In this document: piece by piece, positions 18,747 to 33,982 of the stretch
How the letters are laid out: every line of letters starts with the position of its first letter
Position numbering within the stretch: the stretch's first letter is position 1
Assembly: GCA_047971215.1 (NCBI GenBank)
Contig: JBKDZI010000025.1
Span: 8,704 to 72,703, forward strand
DNA: 64,000 nucleotides
Reading direction: 5' to 3'
From: Bacilli bacterium
GTDB lineage: Bacteria; Bacillota_I; Bacilli_A; RF39; JBKDZI01
The notes under the pieces: generated by a model
Told to the model about the DNA's origin: nothing
Database searches by the model: none
The model's input: only the letters and a program-made list of their open reading frames with translations
Made by a program: the position numbers and the translations under genes

Positions 18747-18812
18747 TGGAGGGCCTAGCCGGATTTGAACCAGCGATCAGGGAGTTGCAGTTTTAGCCTC
18801 TGACCTTCATTA
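18747..18812 (-). pseudogene. Degenerate tRNA-Cys-like 3' fragment (anticodon loop, T-arm, acceptor 3' strand, CCA)
   Basis: The reverse complement ...GGCTAAAACTGCAACTCCCTGATCGCTGGTTCAAATCCGGCTAGGCCCTCCA aligns with tRNA-Cys at 18988..19062 (CTGCAAC loop, TTCAAATCC, GGCCCTCCA). It lacks a pairing anticodon stem and a 5' acceptor strand. Confidence 0.5.
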
Positions 18813-18987
18813 TCCGTCTTTGCCTTTGTTTACTTGATATTAGTTAATTTAAAGTTTCATTGAACATCATTAAATTGTATTAAAACTCATTGGTTTGTGA
18901 CATATTTAGTGACACTAATGCTTTTCTAAGTATCTAATTTATTAAATTATCGATACAGTTTTGTATCGACATATTATAATCAAAAAT

Positions 18988-19062
18988 TGGAGGGCCCGAT
19001 AGGATTTGAACCTACGCGTCGAAGAGTTGCAGTCTTCTGCCTTACCACTTGGCTACGGACCC
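18988..19062 (-). tRNA. tRNA-Cys(GCA)
   Basis: The reverse complement is GGGTCCG TA GCCAAGTGGTAAGGC A GAAGA CTGCAAC TCTTC GACGC GTAGG TTCAAAT CCTAT CGGGCCC T CCA. All four stems pair. Confidence 0.9.
19026..19055. repeat. 30-bp direct repeat (tRNA-Cys D-arm/anticodon region), left copy; the partner is at 28443..28472 (29/30 identical)
   Basis: GTTGCAGTCTTCTGCCTTACCACTTGGCTA versus GTTGCAGTCTTGTGCCTTACCACTTGGCTA. The pair brackets a roughly 9.4-kb block that carries integrase and recombinase genes. Confidence 0.7.
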
Positions 19063-19249
19063 ATTTTATATATTATATGTGATAAGATAGATTTCTTTCA
19101 CTTAATATATTATAACTTTTTTCCTAAATTTAGTCAATTGATATGGCTAAATTTCTACAATTTCCAATACATTCAATGTTTATCAATTTTTTATATATTA
19201 ATTCAGTATAGAAAATTATTTCTTCAACTAAAGTGCTAGACCATTTATA

Positions 19250-19800
19250 GTCAAGCCTAACAAGCGGTTTCTTGTAGCCATGAAGTCTTGTAATAATACT
19301 AATAATAACATAGACAATAAGAATTACTATTTTTTAATAGAAACAGACAATTCAAATAGAGATTACATTAAAACCACTGGTTTTAATGAGAAAAACCGGG
19401 CAGAGAGACCATTCCGGTTTTGAAAAGAACTGGTTATTAAGTTAGTTAATGTATTATCTAAAAACTTTTAAGTGCTTTCAGCCAATGTGGTGGTTGTTTG
19501 AGATGCTTGGAATACCTTTAAATAGGAGTTCAAAAGTTTTTAGAGAGGACAGTGATTAACTGATATTTTCGATACTTGGTCAAAACGTGTGCCAACATGC
19601 TTATTTATAGTTTTGATGGGTATTTTGCTACACGGTGAAATAAACTCCACAAAGGGAGTTTAAATGGGCAAATAGGGCGGAAATTGAGAAGATTTGTCAC
19701 ACATTTTTCAAATTCCATACTTATTATCTTTAAATTGAAAAGATACGAGTTTAATCGTATCCAGGTCATCAGTTATTATAGTAATTATACTTACATTTCA
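19250..19800. ncRNA. Candidate large structured non-coding RNA (GC-enriched, ORF-free region inside the element)
   Basis: There is no ORF longer than 60 codons on either strand across roughly 550 nt. GC content is clearly higher than in surrounding DNA. Several local hairpins are visible (for example AAAACCGGG...CCGGTTTT). Confidence 0.3.
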
Positions 19801-20184
19801 TTATCGATTTATATTAGGGTTAGTTTCATATAGAATTAACTCTTTATTTTTAGCATAAAATGCCCCAATAGCATTTCTTATGCTATCAAATAAGTCATCT
19901 TCAACATGAATTGGTTCTAATCCTTGCCCTGCTGCTTTGATTTTTTGTAAGACTTGTTTTTGTTCTTCTTTAGAAATAGCATCACTATTACATAAATTAC
20001 TATTTAAGAAGTCACAAAAGTATTCAAAGTCACTATCCCAATTTATATTTCCGTTATCTTGTGCTTCCCAAGCCAATTTTTCAATTTGTCTTAGTAACTC
20101 GCCTTGTAAATTATCTGCTTGTCCGCTTTTGGGTATAAGATTGTTCCATATATATTTGCATTCTTTAGCATATTTATATGCCAT
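19801..20184 (-). CDS. Hypothetical protein (element cargo)
   Basis: The frame is 127 aa from MAYKYAKE, with a GGAG RBS. The track ORF starts within the RBS. Confidence 0.35.
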   Translation of the reverse strand: MAYKYAKECKYIWNNLIPKSGQADNLQGELLRQIEKLAWEAQDNGNINWDSDFEYFCDFLNSNLCNSDAISKEEQKQVLQKIKAAGQGLEPIHVEDDLFDSIRNAIGAFYAKNKELILYETNPNINR

Positions 20185-20239
20185 AATATCACTCTCCATT
20201 TCTATTTTAACATATTTTTATAATTATTAATTCTATTAT

Positions 20240-20659
20240 TTAGGACAATTCATTAGGTCTAATACTCTCTATTGAAATCAAATCTTTATCATCAAAGATA
20301 AGTTTAAATACTTCTGGTGCATTAAATGGGTTCTCAAAAATCGTTTTATTTTTAAAATCTCTCGGTAATTCATCATAAGAATTAACTCCATGCGATCTTT
20401 CTCCAAAATCTTCATCAATTAAAATATCTAAATCATTTTTATTAGCAATATATTTAGCTGTTGAAATTGTTCTAACATAATTACTTGAAATAACACAATC
20501 AATATTATTAAACTCTTGTAATTCACTTAATATTTTAGCTCTTTCTTCTCCTAAAACCAATAATATATCTTTTTCATTTCTTAATTGAGGTGAATCATTT
20601 TAATTTAGTTTTTAATCTTTAAAGGTTTAGAATGTCTAATAAAATATATTGTAGTCATA
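20240..20659 (-). pseudogene. Histidine phosphatase (phosphoglycerate mutase-like) family gene disrupted by a frameshift/stop
   Basis: The N-terminal piece MTTIYFIRHSKP (RHG-type motif) terminates after 17 codons. The remaining 106 aa continue in another frame. Confidence 0.5.
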
Positions 20660-20673
20660 AATTAATCGACACC

Positions 20674-22543
20674 TCACATTCTACGCTTATTACTTTGTTC
20701 TTCATAAAAATTAGAATCATTATCTGCCATTTGATTTTGCTGTTCTAATTCCATTCTTTTTTGAACTTCTAGTAAATCAAGTTTAGCAGTCTTTAATAGT
20801 TCGATTTCTTGATTAACAACTTTAGATGGTAAAACCTTTTGAGAAGTATCAGATATAATTTTGCTTGTTTCTTGCTGTTGAAGTGGAAGTAATCTTACTT
20901 GTGATGATATTACATCAAAGCATTTATCATGCTCAAAAAAGGGGATATCTATATATAAATCATTATCACTTTCTCTTACTTTCGCCCCAGATTTTTTAGC
21001 TTCTTTAATTATAGCCTTTTGTATTTCACAAGGAATATTATTCTTAGAAAAAGAAAAATATCCACCATTAGTATCGTGTCCTGCACAGGCTCCAGTAGAA
21101 GTTAATCCTCTTTGAGCAAAACTACTCAATAGGTTTTCAAGAGAAGGTAAATCCTCTGAAAATTCTCGTATTGCTAGTTGTCTTTCATTTTCATCTAATT
21201 TACTTATATCTACATTTGGCTTTCCCTTTGCATAAGAATTTTTCTCATACCTACTTGAAAAGTCAAGCCTGTCTGTAATTTGAGAAGCATCAATTTGAGA
21301 AACAATTTTTATCTCATCTTTAGTTGCAACAATATAATTATTCTCGGTAGTTTGACAGATAAATTCACCATTTTTTGTTTTATGGATATTTTCAAAGCCA
21401 ATATCTGAATGAACTGTTTGTTCTTTATCGCCCCATTGAAAAGTTATATCATGCAATTTCGGGGCAAAACTAGGATCGGAGAGTGGAATTGAATAATTTT
21501 CAATGTGTTCAATAGTGCTTGGAAGTGTCAGTTTTTCTAGAGTAGGTGTAAACATAAGTGCAAATTGTTCTAATTGTAAAACTCCACTAGGAACTCTTAA
21601 ACTTTTTATTCCTCTGCACTTTTTCTTTTTGCATATCAATTTGACATATAGCATTTGTGTTTACCATTCCTAAATCTATACTAACAGCTTTACCGCTTGT
21701 GGATTTAATAATCGTTTGGGAATTCTGAAATGATATTTCAGCAAAATCTCCCCTACGAATTTGAAAAGTATATGGAATACCATTATGCGTCTTTTTAATG
21801 GTTAAAATACTATTTTCCTGTGCTTCAAAAACTCCATTTGATCCATCATATTTGCTATTACCTCTTTTACTACTGCCTGAGCGAGCTTCCAGTGATGTTT
21901 GAAATGGCACTTTAAAACTATCTGGCAATTCTACATATTCTAAACCATTTAGATTACGAAAAGCATTATTTCCAGATTTTTCGACTCCTTCATGTAATAT
22001 TAAAGTCTTTATATTCTTACATTGATTTATAAAATTAGATGGTAATTCTTTTATTGAACCAGCTACTTCAACACGAATTAAATTTGTATCGTGCGATGCA
22101 TACATATTACCTAAAGATTTGATATTATTTCCAAGTACGAGATTTTGAACTTCTGGATACATACCAGTTCCTAAATATTCAATAGTGACAGGTAAATTAT
22201 ATTGTGTTCTTGTTGAGTCAAGAGAATTATTTCCTAAAGTTTTAATACCATTAGGTAATGTTACTTTTTTTAGATTAGAGAAAGCCGCTTCGAAAGTAAA
22301 ATATCCATCTGGAATTTTTGTTATACTTCCATCTCCAAAATTTATTTCAGTTGCTCCAGACATACCCGCCAAAGCTTTGTTAGCAATCATATTAAGGTTC
22401 GGATCAAGCTGCTTAACTTCTTTTGGAATATTATAAACTTGTAATCCTTTAGGAACATCAACTAACATTCCAGTCAATTGATCTATAATATATCCATTAA
22501 TATCTTTTAATTGTTGTTTTGGTTTTCTATCAAATATTCCCAT
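20674..22543 (-). pseudogene. BspA-type leucine-rich-repeat surface-like protein, split into two overlapping ORFs (21587..22543 and 20674..21654)
   Basis: The upstream ORF carries LRR_5-like repeats (NIKSLGNxxF...LxxVxLPxSIxxIG pattern). The two ORFs overlap by 68 nt in different frames, consistent with a frameshift in a T-rich stretch. Confidence 0.4.
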
Positions 22544-22717
22544 TTTTTCACCTACTAATTCCTTTAAATTTGTGCATAATCATTTGTTGCTAGATAATCT
22601 ATTATTAGTATATCATTATTTTGGTTTTTTTCTCCCTATTTAACAAGCATTTTACTAAAAATTATGTAAAACGTTTGTAGTAAATTTATATATTTAAATA
22701 GTTATTGAGGAGTTGCT

Positions 22718-23383
22718 ATGAACGAACTATATGAGGCTGTAGAAAAATGTTTTTCTAATGATGTTGTTTTGGCCGATATTGAGAAGACTTTGAGAAACGA
22801 GTTTCTTGCTGCTAAAGCAAGATACAAACGAGTCCAAGATTATCCAGTAATTGCTAGTAATTATATGGATCATATCACTTCTAAGACTGATTTATCCAAA
22901 CTAAACAAAAGAAAAGATGTTTTAGCTTTTAGGATTGTATTTGAGAATGGCGAAGAAATTTATCTTGATAAGAATGTTGTTGATAATTGGTTTTTTGATG
23001 GAGTAAATGATTCAGAAGATGCTGATGATACTATTTATGATGCTTCTGGAGTTGACATTATAAGAAAGGGTTTAGTTTTTAAGGAGGGCTTTTTGAAGTT
23101 GAAATTATCTATTTTAAGTCATTTATATACAGTTGATGGTATTGAAAGTGGACAGATTGATCCTAATGCAATTGATAGATTAACTGAAAAGATGGATATA
23201 ACTCATATTCTTCTTAAACTAGATAAAGATTCTCCGAGTGAACTTTCATTATTAGTCCCTTATGTTGATAGAACTGATTGCCCACCTATTAGTCTCACTA
23301 TTCCAGCTGTTTTCGAGAACAAGTCCCAGTTTATTACTTATGATGATGATTACTTGTATATTCAGTGGTTAATTTTAAAATAA
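22718..23383 (+). CDS. Hypothetical protein (element cargo)
   Basis: This 221-aa ORF has no recognisable motif. Confidence 0.3.
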   Translation: MNELYEAVEKCFSNDVVLADIEKTLRNEFLAAKARYKRVQDYPVIASNYMDHITSKTDLSKLNKRKDVLAFRIVFENGEEIYLDKNVVDNWFFDGVNDSEDADDTIYDASGVDIIRKGLVFKEGFLKLKLSILSHLYTVDGIESGQIDPNAIDRLTEKMDITHILLKLDKDSPSELSLLVPYVDRTDCPPISLTIPAVFENKSQFITYDDDYLYIQWLILK

Positions 23384-23675
23384 GTTGAAAGGAAGCTGTA
23401 ATTATTGCTTAATCATGGTTAAACATAGATAGAGGTAATTTAATGCCTAATCAAGTGGTTACTACTGGTAATTGAGTTAGATATAAGACTCATTGATAAA
23501 GGGTTCAATTATTGCTCTTATTTTTTTACCTAAGGGTGTCAAATTAAACAATTGATTAAATAGACATTGGTAATTAGAGTCAATACTTGGTGATTAAGGT
23601 GTTAAAAGTGCTTCATTAGTCTAATTATTAAAAAAGATGATTGATTAGACACTTAGGAGAAAGGATGGATTTTAT

Positions 23676-24278
23676 ATGTTTGTAGAGACTGGCACTGAAT
23701 ACGGATATGCGAGAGTATCCACTAATAGGCAAGATGGGGCTTATGAGATGACTGCTTTACTAAATGCAGGAGTCAAGCAGTCAAATATTTTCTTTGAAAA
23801 AGAAAGTGGTAGTAATGAATCTAGAGAAAAGTTTAATGAATTACTTGGAATAGTTAAAGCTGGTGACACGATTCGTTCTACTGAGATTACTCGTATTGCT
23901 AGAAATATGCGCAACCTTATAGATATTGTGGAGCTTACAAATAAATTAAAACTTAGGCTTATTATAGGTAACTTAGTTGTTGATTGTAGAACCGATGAAT
24001 TAGATCCTATTACTGAAGTTACTTTATTAGTAATTGGTATGTTTGGGATGTTCGATTTAAAGATGAAGAAGCATCAAATTATGCTTGGGCTTGAGAATGC
24101 TGTTGCTTCTGGCAATAAATTAGGTAGAAAGTTTAAAACTAAAGATGATATTGATGAGAAGTTTTATAAATACTACTCGCAATACAAAAATAATCAAATA
24201 AATCTAACTGAATTATCTAAACTCTCTGGAGTATGCAGACAGACTTGTTATAATTTGATTGATCTTATTGAAAGTTAA
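23676..24278 (+). CDS. Serine recombinase (resolvase/invertase family)
   Basis: The N-terminal catalytic motif YGYARVSTNRQD contains the active-site serine. The length of about 200 aa, with a C-terminal HTH, fits the family. Confidence 0.75.
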   Translation: MFVETGTEYGYARVSTNRQDGAYEMTALLNAGVKQSNIFFEKESGSNESREKFNELLGIVKAGDTIRSTEITRIARNMRNLIDIVELTNKLKLRLIIGNLVVDCRTDELDPITEVTLLVIGMFGMFDLKMKKHQIMLGLENAVASGNKLGRKFKTKDDIDEKFYKYYSQYKNNQINLTELSKLSGVCRQTCYNLIDLIES

Positions 24279-24324
24279 AAGAAGTTACTCATTTGTGAGT
24301 AGCTTCTTTTTTCTTTTATAATAT

Positions 24325-24984
24325 TTAATCTACATCATAATATGTTGCATTATCATATAGGATTCTTCTAAGAGTGAAGGTATCGTCATCGATTTTGGGG
24401 AACTTTTCTTTAATCATATTAATAATTTTATCCTTATCTCTAGTATATTTACTAAATTCTTCATCATAAAAGCTAGCGATTTCTTCTTTATTCGCCCAAA
24501 GCCAAGAATTATCGTTATTCATTTGTTTTATTGTTCTATTTACTGAATCTTTTGTATGACATTTAATATAACGACCATTAACTTTTTTAAAATTATATTT
24601 TCTAAAAAAATAACCTATTCGATTTGAACTTATATCAGTATCAAATAACTCTTTTATTTTTTTTGCTGCTTCTTTATGTGTAGTTATATTATTTTTCTTA
24701 AAAACTTTTCCTATTTCATATTCATACTCTAGGAGCTTAGGAACATTTGTAGGTTTATGCTTTCTTTTCCATATTTTTTTGTTATATTTCGAAACATAGT
24801 ATGATATAGATCTCCTACTGGCACCTGTTTTGTTTGTTATATAAGTTATATCTTTCCCTTCAGAATATAAAAGAAGCACATTACACATTTTTTCTAATCT
24901 TTCATTTTGAGTTCCCCTAAGTGTTTCTTCTAATGACTTTTTTTGATATTCAGTTAATTTAAAATTTCTTCTTGCTTTTCTCAT
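24325..24984 (-). CDS. Hypothetical DNA-binding protein (N-terminal HTH, transposase-like)
   Basis: The frame is 219 aa. The N-terminal region LTEYQKKSLEETLRG...ITYITNKTGASRRSISYYVSKY looks like an HTH. Confidence 0.3.
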   Translation of the reverse strand: MRKARRNFKLTEYQKKSLEETLRGTQNERLEKMCNVLLLYSEGKDITYITNKTGASRRSISYYVSKYNKKIWKRKHKPTNVPKLLEYEYEIGKVFKKNNITTHKEAAKKIKELFDTDISSNRIGYFFRKYNFKKVNGRYIKCHTKDSVNRTIKQMNNDNSWLWANKEEIASFYDEEFSKYTRDKDKIINMIKEKFPKIDDDTFTLRRILYDNATYYDVD

Positions 24985-25156
24985 ATTTTTTCCTCTAACA
25001 CCAATTATACTTCAAAAACGGATAGCGAGCAATATAATCCGTTTTTTTATGAACTGATTTTCCTCGCTACGGTTTTAACCCTTTATATATAAAGTTCTAC
25101 AAAGGGGTAAAAATATTAAAAAGTTTTTATTTTACTGTGAAAGGAGAAAAACGAAC

Positions 25157-25276
25157 ATGGCAAATCAAATTAACGAACACAGTGGTTGTGGGTCCGGGGC
25201 TCATTATGCCCATTTTGCTCGCTCATGTTTTAGTAGGCATAAGAAATGCCAAACAAAGTTGTTGATGCTCAACTAA
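25157..25276 (+). CDS. Small Cys/His-rich peptide (39 aa), candidate sORF upstream of the RecA-like gene
   Basis: The peptide is MANQINEHSGCGSGAHYAHFARSCFSRHKKCQTKLLMLN. An AAAGGAGA RBS lies 9 nt upstream. Confidence 0.25.
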   Translation: MANQINEHSGCGSGAHYAHFARSCFSRHKKCQTKLLMLN

Positions 25277-25306
25277 AAAGTATCGTTACAGTAAGAGGAG
25301 AATTAA

Positions 25307-26371
25307 ATGAAAAGTAATAAGAAAACTACAGGTGGAACTAGCTTAGCTGATTTGGCTAATTCTCTACCTAACTATTTTAGTGATACTACAATAGTGAAAT
25401 CAGGAATATATTCATTGGATTATTTACTTAAAGGGGGATTACAACTTGGATCATTCATTCAGTTTGTAGCGGAGTCTGGAATTGGAAAATCAACTATCGC
25501 ACTACAAGTTGCTAGTAATCTATGTGAGCAAGGTCATAAGGTTTTATATCTCGATAGCGAGGGTTCAGTAACTAATAAAACGTTGGAATCTACTGGAGTT
25601 TCTAAATATCTTAATAATGGGTTTTATTATGTAAGAGAATCCACTTTTGATAAAGTAGAAAAAAAATTAGATAGATTTATATCAACAAATGAAATATCAG
25701 TTATTATGATTGATTCAATAGCCAATCTAATCAATGAGGGTTTTACTAATTTAAATGATGGTATTTCCATCACAAATAACAATACCAATAATATTAGTGG
25801 CCCATTGGTTAAGTTTATCAATAAATATAAATCAGTAGCTACAAGTTGCAATATCTGTTTCGTGTTAGTAAATCAGTATAGAAATACAATAAACATGAAG
25901 ATAGGAACCCAATTAAAAGAATATGGTTCAAAGAATGTCAGATATGCTTCAGATGTCATTATAAAAATAAACGGGATTAAGTCATTTGGATCAGCAAGAG
26001 ACTTTAAAAATTTAACTAATAGTGCTGATGCAGGGATTGCATTGGAATTAGAAATTGTTAAGAGTAATAAGTCGAGACCTGGTACTATTATGCCTGCTTA
26101 TCTAATTTATGGTAAGGGAATAGACAACATGTGGAATTGGGTTTATGAACTTAAAAAGGCGGATGTCATTAAGCAGGCTGGTAAATATTTCTCTTTAGAT
26201 TATGTGGGGAACCAAATAAAGGAAGATGGTATGCCTAATTTCGTTAGAGCACTAGAAAGCACAGAGTTTAGTGTTGATGACTTTACTAACCTAATGCCAG
26301 TTGGTGATGATTTTGATGGTGAGTTTACTCTTGAATTTTCAACTTCGGCAGATGATGGTGGTGAATTATGA
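25307..26371 (+). CDS. RecA-family recombinase/ATPase (divergent, mobile-element encoded)
   Basis: Walker A is AESGIGKSTIALQ. An L2-like region NQYRNTINMKIGTQLKEYGSKNVRYASDVII parallels RecA NQIRMKIGVMFG...ALKFYASVRLDI. The C-terminal tail is acidic (DDFDGEFTLEFSTSADDGGEL). Confidence 0.7.
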   Translation: MKSNKKTTGGTSLADLANSLPNYFSDTTIVKSGIYSLDYLLKGGLQLGSFIQFVAESGIGKSTIALQVASNLCEQGHKVLYLDSEGSVTNKTLESTGVSKYLNNGFYYVRESTFDKVEKKLDRFISTNEISVIMIDSIANLINEGFTNLNDGISITNNNTNNISGPLVKFINKYKSVATSCNICFVLVNQYRNTINMKIGTQLKEYGSKNVRYASDVIIKINGIKSFGSARDFKNLTNSADAGIALELEIVKSNKSRPGTIMPAYLIYGKGIDNMWNWVYELKKADVIKQAGKYFSLDYVGNQIKEDGMPNFVRALESTEFSVDDFTNLMPVGDDFDGEFTLEFSTSADDGGEL

Positions 26372-27093
26372 GCTATGGTTATTTTAAACCTCAATATGGA
26401 GGTAATTTACAAAAGGGCTCTTTAGAGGGACAATATAAATATCTAAAAAGGATTCCAAACATTAGAGTTTACTATGATCATTATGGAAAAGGTAGTCCTC
26501 ACTTTTCAAATCTGATGAAGAAGTTAAGTGAGGGTGATTCCTTATATGTAACCAATGTAAGAGATTTAGGTAAAACTAATAATGGTGTTTTTACAAACTT
26601 CTTAACACTAAAGTCATTAAAGGTTAATTTATTTATCAATGACAAAAAGATTGATATAGATGGACTCTTTAATGAAATTGATACGATGAAAAAGTTTAAT
26701 TATGCGCATACCAAAGGACAACTCCGAGATATCGACATAGTTGATGCTACCATGCTCAAATATATATATAGTTTTATAGAGAATAAAGGAAAGAAAGTGA
26801 ATTTTGAAAATGTAAATATAGCTGATTTGTTATTAGCACTTGGAGAACAACTTAAAAGTTCTCAAAAACAAAAAGATAGTGCTTCTATTGTTATAAGCAA
26901 GGAACTACTATCTTCAAAGGAAGTATGTGAGTTATATCCATGCTTTACCGATGATAATGCCTTAAGAAAGGCTACAGATAAGGGATTGCCTTATCTGAAA
27001 ACTGGCAGACATAGATTTTATAGAAGAATTGATATTGATGGATGGCTTGATAAACAAATTATTATTGAGGGAAATCAGTTGATGTTTGATTGA
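26368..27093 (+). CDS. Protein with a C-terminal excisionase-type HTH domain (Xis-like)
   Basis: The C-terminal segment LYPCFTDDNALRKATDKGLPYLKTGRHRFYRRIDIDGWL matches the Xis/MerR-type HTH_17 pattern (LPxxKxGRxxxFxxxDIDxWL). It sits immediately upstream of the integrase. Confidence 0.45.
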   Translation: MSYGYFKPQYGGNLQKGSLEGQYKYLKRIPNIRVYYDHYGKGSPHFSNLMKKLSEGDSLYVTNVRDLGKTNNGVFTNFLTLKSLKVNLFINDKKIDIDGLFNEIDTMKKFNYAHTKGQLRDIDIVDATMLKYIYSFIENKGKKVNFENVNIADLLLALGEQLKSSQKQKDSASIVISKELLSSKEVCELYPCFTDDNALRKATDKGLPYLKTGRHRFYRRIDIDGWLDKQIIIEGNQLMFD

Positions 27094-27128
27094 ATATACG
27101 TCACAAATAGAAAAGAAAGGAAGATTTT

Positions 27129-28329
27129 ATGATAAATATTCTAGATACAAAGTATATAAAAGACAAAGGAAACGGAACCTACAGAATTAGGTTTCGTATT
27201 CCTGATGCTTTTGGTAAGAAAAACGATTGGTTCACTAGGCAAATCAAAAATAGCACCATAGAAGATGCTATTCAATTAAGAGATGCTGCTCTAAAAGAAC
27301 TTGCAGAAAAAGGTCAGATTGATAGTACTATGAGAGTAAAGGCTTGTGCTGAACTGTGGATGAATCAAGTAGCTGAAAATATAAATGCAGGTTCTACTAT
27401 TGATGACAAGAAATCTAAACTAACAAATCATATTCTACCATATATGGGTGAAGATAGAATGTGTGATGTTAATCGGGAACGTATTCAAGGGTTAATTAAT
27501 ACTCTTAAGAAGAAAGATTCTCAAAGACATGATAGTAATGGTAAAACAATAAAGTTAAGCTCTACCACTATCAAAAATATTTATAGCATTGTTCGTGCTA
27601 TGTTTGCATGGGCGGCTGATGAAGATATTAACATTATTGAAGTTACACCTTGTAGAAAGATTTATTTACCAGAAGTAGATGAGTATGATAAAGAGGTTTT
27701 TGATACAGAAGAAATAGATAGATTACTTGATGCTATTATTAAGCTTCCTATTCAAAGACAGTGTTTATATTTAATTCCACTGTTTTGTGGTCTTCGTAGA
27801 GGTGAAGTTGCAGGTCTAAGATGGAAAGATATTGATTTTGAACATCAAAAGATTCATATTAGAAAGTCATTATCTATAACAAAATCTAAAGGTACGGAAC
27901 TTAAGAAACCCAAGAGCAAAAAAGACCGAACAACTGGAATGAACGATTGGGTGAAAGATAGTCTTTTGCAGCTCAAGGAGGAGCAGCGGAAATTAAAAAC
28001 ATCAATGGGTAAGTTCTATAAAGATAGTGAAATGGTTTTTACTGATGAATATGGTGGATATTTAACTCCAAATGCTATTATGGAGAAGATTTATAAAGAA
28101 ACATAATTTAAAACATGTAGTTTATCACGGTTTAAGAGCAAGCTATGCGTCTTATCTATATAATCGCGGGATACCAATTAAAGAAATATCCGAATCGCTA
28201 GGTCATAGTAAGACTAGAACAACAGATAAATATTATTTAATAACTGATAGTAATACGAATACCCGTATTTCAGAAGTTACAAATGATTTTAAGAGACCTA
28301 GAACAATAGTGACAACTACCTCTGATTAG
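27129..28329 (+). pseudogene. Tyrosine integrase disrupted by a frameshift (ORFs 27129..28106 and 28072..28329)
   Basis: The first ORF carries the N-terminal SAM-like domain and catalytic Arg (LRRGEVAGLRWKDID). The second ORF carries HGLRASYASYL and LGHSKTRTTDKYY (H-x-x-R and catalytic Tyr). The frame switch lies near ATTATGGAGAAGA, with no homopolymer involved. Confidence 0.8.
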
Positions 28330-28442
28330 AGCAAGGCTTGGGACACTTTTTGTGACATTTTTCATAATAAAAGAGTTTGTTATTTCACAAACCCTTATAA
28401 ACACTAGCTTAAATTGACGCTATCAACAAACATGTCCAATTT

Positions 28443-28490
28443 GTTGCAGTCTTGTGCCTTACCACTTGGCTATAGACTCATTACACCGAT
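28443..28490 (-). pseudogene. tRNA-Cys 5'-half fragment (right att-like repeat of the element)
   Basis: The reverse complement TGAGTCTATAGCCAAGTGGTAAGGCACAAGACTGCAAC matches the D-arm/anticodon part of tRNA-Cys. The acceptor 5' strand diverges. The sequence after the anticodon loop is not tRNA. Confidence 0.65.
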
Positions 28491-28564
28491 AACTATATCA
28501 AAAATAAAATATCTTTTCAATATATTTTATGATGTTTATACAAAAAGTTTCATATTTTTAAAAA

Positions 28565-33667: not shown

Positions 33668-33982
33668 ATGGAAAAATATACTTTAGCATTAGATATAGGT
33701 ACAACCTCAGTTGGATGGACTGTTATAAATGACAAGTTAGAAATTTCAACATTTAATGAAAAAAATCTTTGGGGTGTAAGATTATTTGATTCTGCTTCCA
33801 CTGCAGAAGTTAGAAGAACTCAACGTGGGTCAAGACGTAGATATTTAAGACGACGTAGAAGATTGGAATTATTGCAATATTTATTTCAAATGGAAATGAA
33901 TAAAATAGATACTAATTTTTTTGATATTACTGTTGAAAATGATAAATGGCTTAAAAATAAACGCTTTATCGCATGCTTGTAA
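33668..33982 (+). pseudogene. cas9: Cas9 N-terminal stub (RuvC-I motif plus arginine-rich bridge helix, 104 aa)
   Basis: MEKYTLALDIGTTSVGWTVIND parallels Cas9 [23 protein letters not shown], with the catalytic Asp conserved. RRTQRGSRRRYLRRRRRLELLQYLFQMEMNKIDTNFF parallels [36 protein letters not shown]. The ORF stops after about 100 residues, directly before a CRISPR repeat. Confidence 0.75.

Follow-up and report, generated by a model that had tools for sequence, protein, structure and literature searches.

An integrative element that probably split a host tRNA-Cys gene and brought its own copy into an uncultured member of the Bacilli

Results

Three tRNA-Cys pieces around a 7-bp core

We analyzed a 64-kb stretch of DNA (the window) from a metagenome-assembled genome (MAG) of an uncultured member of the Bacilli (NCBI 'Bacilli bacterium', ~23% G+C), in which an earlier reading, here called the original prediction, had placed a decayed integrative element at a tRNA-Cys gene. 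Related loci used for comparison, mostly metagenome contigs, carry L numbers (L001 and L010-L052) and their proteins carry P numbers. The locus holds three pieces of tRNA-Cys, all on one strand: one intact gene and two fragments, both of which adjoin CTGCAAC, the sequence of the anticodon loop. The features are listed below, the fragments being labelled by the origin that we propose for them.

18747..18783, minus strand: putative displaced host tRNA-Cys 3' half, from the 3' strand of the anticodon stem (TCCCT) through CCA, directly after CTGCAAC
18784..18790, no strand: core copy 1, GTTGCAG on the plus strand (the anticodon loop CTGCAAC), joining element and host 3' half
18988..19062, minus strand: intact tRNA-Cys(GCA), U73, CCA encoded (ARAGORN; Rfam, 63.5 bits), between the two host halves
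28443..28449, no strand: core copy 2, GTTGCAG, joining element and host 5' half
28450..28479, minus strand: putative displaced host tRNA-Cys 5' half, with three G-to-A changes relative to the host sequence of the L019/L013 type

The intact gene has all seven acceptor pairs and all five anticodon-stem pairs. The 3' half lies 196 bp downstream of it, where the tRNA strand reads ...GAGGCTAAAA, CTGCAAC, TCCCTGATCGCTGGTTCAAATCCGGCTAGGCCCTCCA; in a blastn comparison of the window with the related loci, 18747-18791 aligned over 45 bp with the 3' half of the L019 tRNA-Cys, at 95.6% identity. At the far end, 28443-28479 (minus strand) is a copy of the first 37 nt of tRNA-Cys, spanning tRNA positions 1-38 and identical to the intact gene at 33 of the 37 nt. 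The original prediction had drawn this 5'-half fragment as 28443..28490; the fragment exists, but the half comprises 28443-28479 and the similarity stops at 28482. Its alignment with the intact gene (19026-19055 against 28443-28472, 29/30 identical, 36/40 when extended) ranks first among the direct repeats of the region, and the identity ends exactly past the anticodon loop CTGCAAC. This 30-bp repeat had been taken for the attachment (att) repeat, but the shared core is only 7 bp long (8 bp if a shared A is counted), the longer similarity arising because both sequences are tRNA-Cys 5' halves. As anticipated, the repeat does not recur at sites unrelated to tRNA: the window contains no further copy, and 100 shuffles produced none.

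Across the core, the two junctions read ...CAAGA/CTGCAAC/AAATTGG and ...CTAAAA/CTGCAAC/TCCCTG; with both fragments abutting CTGCAAC, the earlier proposal of recombination at the anticodon loop holds. Neither element-host junction rebuilds a tRNA, ARAGORN calling none at either. When the 5' and 3' fragments were joined to each other, ARAGORN did call a tRNA, and with the G-to-A changes at positions 2, 28 and 29 reverted this became a canonical tRNA-Cys(GCA), which a single compensatory pair in the T stem sets apart from the tRNA-Cys native to the L019 host. The fragments also pair mutually at acceptor positions 6-67 and 7-66 (T-A and A-T, where the intact gene has C-G and G-C), the acceptor strand TAGGCCC of the 3' fragment complementing T6/A7 of the 5' fragment. 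Given three pieces, and two halves that match each other, the simplest reading is that a host tRNA-Cys gene was split at the 7-bp core and that the intact gene lies inside the inserted DNA, 18791-28442. The left boundary, first set at 19026/19063, is thereby moved to 18791, since the host 3' half occupies 18747-18790.

Integrase and recombination genes

The interval has a G+C content of ~0.30, compared with ~0.23 around it. The genes first listed for it are all present, as is a GC-rich non-coding stretch described further below. Those with a likely part in recombination are:

27129..28329, plus strand: tyrosine integrase pseudogene, in two open reading frames (ORFs), 27129-28106 and 28072-28329
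26368..27093, plus strand: protein of 241 amino acids (aa) with an HTH_17 Xis-like C-terminus, its N-terminal part homologous to a 135-aa ORF of the relatives
25307..26371, plus strand: divergent RecA-core ATPase, intact (Pfam RecA, 5e-13; 48-52% identical in relatives)
24325..24984, minus strand: helix-turn-helix (HTH) protein, 219 aa, with an IS630-like N-terminal HTH and syntenic homologues in L026 and L040
23676..24278, plus strand: small serine recombinase (resolvase/invertase), intact (Pfam Resolvase, 2e-20; phrog_125; 51% identical to the relatives' resolvase)
23537..23650, no strand: two imperfect palindromes upstream of the resolvase, TGTC...GACA (23537-23566) and GTCTAAT...ATTAGAC (23619-23650)

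The two integrase ORFs match contiguous stretches of phrog_1 (114-382 and 381-436) and carry the domains Phage_int_SAM_3 and Phage_integrase. We aligned the reconstructed window protein with 14 intact relatives (387-405 aa, 38-63% identical). All 14 read PNAIGNRWRRF where the window, its frame broken at 28080, reads PNAI/WRRF, which indicates that the window integrase lost 8 bp and confirms the frameshift that had been predicted. The catalytic R-K-HxxR-H/W-Y residues are conserved in the alignment, and the lesion parts R and K, before it, from HxxR, H and Y, after it. An identical truncated integrase ORF of 325 aa is called in L001, a Logan assembly of the same organism. Programmed frameshifting was considered as an explanation of the two ORFs and rejected on account of the 8-bp deletion relative to all relatives and the lack of a slippery run.

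The RecA homologue matches RecA chains in the PDB (~1e-10, residues 26-305). The palindromes upstream of the resolvase, TGTCAAATTAA...TTAAATAGACA (23537-23566) and GTCTAATTA...TGATTAGAC (23619-23650), lie in a non-coding block that is 76% identical to L010/L012, above the value for the neighbouring coding DNA. They look like res-type subsites; if they are, the excised element would exist as a circle that needs multimer resolution.

Element ends, arms and promoters

Joining the two ends of the interval gives a reconstructed attachment site of the element (attP), with the core flanked by two arms. These and the two promoter-like sites that face the tRNA pieces are:

18791..18987, no strand: tRNA-proximal arm of the reconstructed attP, its layout homologous to the tRNA-to-core spacer of L026
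28330..28442, no strand: integrase-proximal arm of attP, with GGGACACTTTTTGTGACAT at 28340-28358 and a terminator-like hairpin at 28371-28396
19109..19137, minus strand: promoter-like site of the element tRNA, TTGACT-17-TATAAT, sigma-70-like with 11/12 matches; an equivalent lies upstream of the element tRNA of L026
28492..28520, minus strand: putative original host tRNA-Cys promoter, TTGAAA-17-TG-TATAGT, now directed into the element and toward the terminator-like hairpin

In the tRNA-proximal arm, two GTGACA-type repeats lie within TTTGTGACATATTTAGTGACAC (18894-18915), and immediately 3' of the intact tRNA there is a hairpin formed by TCGATACA/TGTATCGA (18950-18969). The motif of the integrase-proximal arm is conserved as GTGACACTTTTTGTGACATTTT in L010, L017, L024, L047 and L048, with the variant GTGACACATTTTGTGACATTTT in L016. 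The 64 kb contain just two copies of TTGTGACA, at 28350 and 18895, on the same strand and each time no more than ~105 bp from a core; each copy is part of a GTGACA repeat pair, the integrase-proximal pair being conserved across the family. These repeats are putative arm sites for the integrase.

The host promoter still faces the 5' half-tRNA, with the terminator-like hairpin ~50 nt past the core (28371-28520, minus strand). A short half-tRNA transcript could thus still be made, ending just before the integrase stop codon with no overlap of int.

Related elements in other hosts

Six integrase homologues lie in contexts that share a conserved module of resolvase, minus-strand ORF, ATPase, small ORFs, HTH_17 Xis protein and integrase, the ATPase being RecA-like or, in some lineages, DnaB-like. 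The closest relatives have intact integrases, 51-62% identical to that of the window, and the same GTTGCAG junction. Altogether, eleven distinct host tRNA-Cys 5' halves abut GTTGCAG (window, L010-14, L016, L017, L024, L047 and L048); the integrase-side junctions of L047 and L048 were added by a metagenome scan, which yielded no left ends. One integrase, P0126, is found on at least 24 contigs with differing host genes beyond it. In L010-L014, which share an identical P0126, the element DNA shows 100% identity through ...GATGTTGCAG, and past the core stand five different reverse-complemented tRNA-Cys 5' halves and different flanking genes. One identical element in at least five host backgrounds and a recurring junction together imply that recombination at the anticodon loop is a property of the family and that the element was recently mobile. 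A search for left ends by means of a 104-aa cargo protein of L010 and the contexts P0191-P0195 found no tRNA end; these contexts comprised type I restriction-modification cargo, accessory regions of prophages and a variant that encodes a large serine recombinase.

The tRNA-bearing end is visible in more distant relatives. In L026-28 (integrase 46% identical), the order is integrase, consensus promoter, complete tRNA-Cys, ~160 bp with direct repeats, CTGCAAC and host 3' half, and the anticodon and T stems of this host half are unlike those of the element tRNA. The promoter, tRNA, spacer and core of the window (18791-19140) are collinear with this module on both sides of the tRNA. The functional tRNA had been thought to receive only its 5' half from the element; that view gives way here, as the whole gene lies inside the insertion, in a module homologous to the one that adjoins int in L026. 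L019-21 (integrase 39% identical) hold a complete ~10.2-kb element between tRNA-Cys 5' and 3' fragments (L019 1038-11383), which share a 12-bp core, CTGCAACTCCCT, with an intact tRNA-Cys 107 bp inside. The arm motif of both L026 and L019 is AGTGTATCA, not TTGTGACA, and the core downstream of int reads CTGCAAC in L019 and L026 and GTTGCAG in the window-type elements.

The cargo of the L019 element includes a single-stranded DNA-binding protein (SSB), an FtsH-like AAA protease, a second tyrosine recombinase and a sortase. Both of its arms contain AGTGTATCAA repeats, and its host locus was a tRNA-Cys/tRNA-Gly tandem. L013 and L019 share flanks (NUDIX / bPH_3) and a tRNA-Cys 5' half and carry different elements (P0126-type and P0135-type, respectively), which are inserted oppositely relative to their int genes.

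Proposed mechanism and present state

Based on the features above, we consider it very likely that a ~9.66-kb integrative element (18791-28442 plus one 7-bp core), belonging to a family present in uncultured Bacilli of gut and rumen, split the host tRNA-Cys gene, carries a tRNA-Cys of its own and is now fixed in place. An integrative element at tRNA-Cys, the central claim of the original prediction, is borne out by the integrase, the fragments and the junctions.

The three tRNA pieces, the junctions, the integrase lesion and the family junctions are read from the sequence; from them we infer how recombination would proceed, where the arm sites lie, what the element tRNA does and that the host depends on it, as follows. 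The circular form would have an attP whose core is the 7-nt anticodon loop CTGCAAC, with GTGACA-type arm repeats on both sides. A lambda-type tyrosine integrase would recombine this attP with the stretch of the host tRNA-Cys(GCA) gene that encodes the anticodon loop, and the HTH_17 Xis-like protein would assist excision. Integration would break the host gene into two halves, the 5' one at one end of the element and the 3' one at the opposite end, and, because only 7 bp are shared, neither junction would rebuild a tRNA. The element would compensate with its complete tRNA-Cys and promoter, ~200 bp inside the end opposite int. With the anticodon loop as the sole requirement, one element could enter hosts with differing tRNA-Cys stems. 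The predicted empty site runs from the host flank to 28480, through GGGTCTATAGCCAAGTGGTAAGGCACGGGACTGCAACTCCCTGATCGCTGGTTCAAATCCGGCTAGGCCCTCCA, to the host flank from 18746 downwards. In the window, the integrase deletion and the decayed host 5' half would lock the element in, and the cell would now use the foreign tRNA-Cys. With a broken integrase and with changes at three stem positions of the host 5' half, the element is unlikely to be excised precisely, and even if it were, a good tRNA would not be expected to result; the foreign tRNA-Cys has thus, in all likelihood, effectively become the host gene.

We also lean, by a narrow margin, towards a wider interpretation, in which this is a family of non-viral elements of gut and rumen Bacilli that use the bare 7-nt loop as a near-universal landing site and carry their own tRNA-Cys. 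Host range and orientation would thereby be freed from the host tRNA sequence, the host would be made dependent once the orphaned halves decay, and the window would have captured the permanent replacement of an essential tRNA gene by one acquired horizontally.

Several observations weigh against the proposed insertion. The 5' fragment taken alone is about equidistant from the two candidate parents (3 versus 4 differences), and the AA that it has at anticodon-stem positions 28-29 is also present in the element tRNA, a similarity that may stem from AT-biased decay or from gene conversion by the element tRNA. TTGTGACA matches are no more numerous than expected by chance, and what counts is where they lie. 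The elements of the closest relatives are >20 kb long and their left (tRNA-side) end was not reached; the only other assembly covering the window, the Logan SRR30067258 contig (L001), has the same arrangement, possibly comes from the same sample and ends at the resolvase. The left junction therefore rests on one MAG contig. The finding by ARAGORN and Rfam of a single intact tRNA gene applies to the 64-kb window and not to the whole genome. Finally, the collections hold no close relative of the host, and hence no empty site or excised circle to inspect: a Der GTPase scan of species-collection genomes gave a best match of 57% identity, with no synteny and no tRNA-Cys nearby, and the flanking oxidoreductase has no homologue more than 41% identical. 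The host is thus a lone lineage in these collections, in which no empty site can be shown.

Alternative explanations

The alternative that survives best, although we regard it as unlikely, involves two successive events: a conventional element supplying a tRNA 3' half integrated and was deleted to 196 bp, after which the present element arrived with a 5' half, making the intact gene a chimera of the partial tRNAs of two elements. Such a history would also explain the mutual fit of the fragments, and the hybrid stems would be tolerable (host 5' with element 3' strands form 6/7 and 4/5 pairs, G-U allowed). The intact tRNA of L019 matches the fragments on either side of it without a difference, as in conventional att sites with extended identity, and tandem and remnant islands at tRNA genes (tDNAs) are known (PMC4383910). 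However, two elements are needed, together with a near-total deletion that spared the arm repeats, and the halves of the intact gene would have to pair perfectly (7/7 and 5/5) despite their separate origins. The promoter, tRNA, spacer and core are collinear with the L026 module, which in L026 adjoins an integrase and carries a tRNA unlike the adjacent host fragment. The TTGTGACA repeats in the spacer, furthermore, match the arm motif of the present integrase family, whereas L026 and L019 use AGTGTATCA.

Less probable still is a hybrid gene, according to which the element runs from 19026/19063 to 28442, its attP includes ~37 bp of tRNA 5' portion and the promoter, the intact gene combines an element 5' half with the host 3' half, and 28443-28479 is the displaced host 5' half. 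The 29/30 repeat does stop at the anticodon loop, AAGA of the fragment would pair with TCTT of the intact gene, and islands with displaced 5' tDNA fragments exist (159 of 3919 in Islander; PMC4383910). This model leaves unexplained the second fragment, a 3' half starting at CTGCAAC, 196 bp downstream, and the T6/A7 of the 5' fragment complement that 3' fragment, whereas with the 3' strand of the intact gene only 5/7 acceptor pairs form. The spacer 18791-18987 has the integrase-proximal arm motif and is homologous to element DNA of L026, and a fixed 5' half cannot pair in both the GGGTCTA and the GGGGCTT hosts of the identical P0126 element. A version for the family as a whole, in which it supplies the tRNA 5' half in a reverse-orientation hybrid, had been entertained and was dropped on the finding of the 3' fragment; it also clashed with the differing host acceptor stems.

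Least credible of all is that no site-specific insertion took place and that a local tRNA-Cys duplication with decay, or misassembly of the metagenome bin, produced the arrangement: the window does come from a MAG, and L001, possibly of the same sample, falls short of the left junction, but the same 7-nt core ends both fragments, at least 11 independent contexts, drawn from different samples, show the core junction, and the interval contains an integrase, an Xis-like protein and a shift in G+C.

Cargo and neighbouring features

The remainder of the element, on the side of the intact tRNA, comprises:

19140..19800, plus strand: ORF-free stretch of relatively high G+C (up to 0.36, compared with ~0.23 for the genome)
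19801..20199, minus strand: cargo ORF, 132 aa, no family match
20240..20656, minus strand: histidine phosphatase pseudogene (His_Phos_1, profile 29-84 of 194), N-terminal MTTIYFIRHS... with the RHS motif, then a stop
20674..22543, minus strand: BspA-type leucine-rich repeat (LRR) surface-protein gene with a frameshift near A-runs, LRR_5 matches in both ORFs
22718..23383, plus strand: cargo ORF, 221 aa, no family match

The histidine phosphatase and LRR pseudogenes confirm that the cargo is decaying, as had been proposed. No defence system or named function was found for the cargo in PADLOC and NCBIfam. Searches with Pfam, PHROGs, NCBIfam and PADLOC, in which many ORFs remained without a family, likewise retrieved no genes typical of phage satellites or mobilizable elements (terS, capsid-size redirection, oriT/relaxase). 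The ORF-free stretch 19140-19800 has no Rfam family at the gathering and E-value thresholds, no blastn match to phages or plasmids and no tblastx homology to any of the related loci. Within it, 19330-19720 (G+C 0.32-0.36) folds better than shuffled sequences on the plus strand (z = -3.7; minus strand, z = -1.65), and this part could be an RNA of no known family or the wreck of a gene.

Among the relatives, L052 (14-6308) encodes the 104-aa cargo protein together with its neighbours in an element that has a large serine recombinase in place of the tyrosine integrase, and L034-L039 encode a homologue 66-68% identical in prophage accessory regions, with McrBC and methylase genes alongside. These occurrences suggest an exchange of cargo modules among different kinds of element.

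Elsewhere in the window, a 104-aa ORF at 33668-33982 (plus strand) corresponds to the N-terminus of Cas9, with the RuvC-I motif DIGTTSVGW followed by an Arg-rich bridge helix. Its counterpart in L001 has a Pfam Cas9-BH tag, and no full-length Cas9 follows in the window; the ORF looks like a truncated remnant.

Discussion

The fossil copy in the window shows a route for the horizontal replacement of a core translation gene. Integration vectors for small-genome Bacillota could be built from its intact relatives, each of which offers an integrase, an attP of ~300 bp and a tRNA.

By analogy, and with its catalysis putative, the proposed mechanism appears to match tRNA-dependent lysogeny, described by Guerrero-Bustamante and Hatfull (mBio 2024; PMC10865867) for Fionnbharth, LeBron, Gaia and other actinobacteriophages. 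In these phages attP and attB have ~8-17 bp of a tRNA gene in common, integration does not rebuild a tRNA and the lysogens need the cognate tRNA supplied by the phage; the proof is genetic in mycobacteriophages, and the same is inferred for Gordonia phages and the Lactobacillus johnsonii prophage Lj965 (PMC10865867). Both systems have a tyrosine integrase, an attB inside a host tRNA gene, a core too short to rebuild the tRNA (~8-17 bp in the phages, 7-12 bp in the window family) and a complete tRNA of the same isotype on the element, as also in L026-28 and L019-21. Arm-type repeat pairs flank the core in both, those of the window being predicted arms, and attP is inverted among related integrases (Omega/Gaia in the one, window-type versus L019/L026 in the other).

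The carriers differ. Known tRNA-dependent lysogeny is a property of temperate phages, whereas the window element is not a phage: no virion, packaging or lysis genes and no PHROG structural matches were found in it or in ~20 kb of its relatives, no phage integrase exceeds 31% identity to that of the window, and an IMG/VR scan with the integrase alignment gave one weak partial match only (37% over ~50 residues). The target tRNA-Cys(GCA) is absent from the isotypes in Table 2 of PMC10865867, the window core is exactly the anticodon loop, and the host is an uncultured member of the Bacilli with 23% G+C. The window copy is fossilised with its foreign tRNA resident, and the requirement for that tRNA, known for the phages, is here a deduction. 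In the literature that we searched, no non-phage element with a replacement tRNA-Cys is described, an absence that is not proof. If correct, our interpretation would extend integration by elements that bring their own tRNA past actinobacteriophages to non-phage elements, to low-G+C uncultured Bacilli and to a tRNA-Cys target.

A short core at the anticodon loop has a precedent outside phages in the integrative and conjugative elements ICEMh1 and ICEPmu1 of Pasteurellaceae, whose att core is an 11-13-bp repeat equal to the anticodon loop of tRNA-Leu-UUG and for which the authors argue a broader host range (PMC6861422). The data for the present family similarly suggest that a loop-only core opens hosts with differing tRNA-Cys sequences. 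Unlike the window element, ICEMh1 and ICEPmu1 reportedly keep a complete tRNA at attL by conservation of the T-arm; they are large and conjugative, use a XerCD-like recombinase pair and have no separate replacement gene described (PMC6861422).

Islands of the Islander type share with the window element a tyrosine integrase, a crossover centred on the anticodon and tDNA fragments at the ends (PMC4383910). They have tens of shared base pairs, regenerate a hybrid tRNA and leave one displaced fragment, which is a 3' fragment in 3760 islands and a 5' fragment in 159 (PMC4383910). The window departs from the definition of this class, as both host halves are displaced and the working gene lies wholly in the element, 196 bp inside. 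Mapping that relies on one intact tDNA and one fragment sets the boundary ~270 bp off and misreads the mechanism, as happened in the first reading of this locus, and some of the catalogued 5'-fragment islands may be cases of the same kind.

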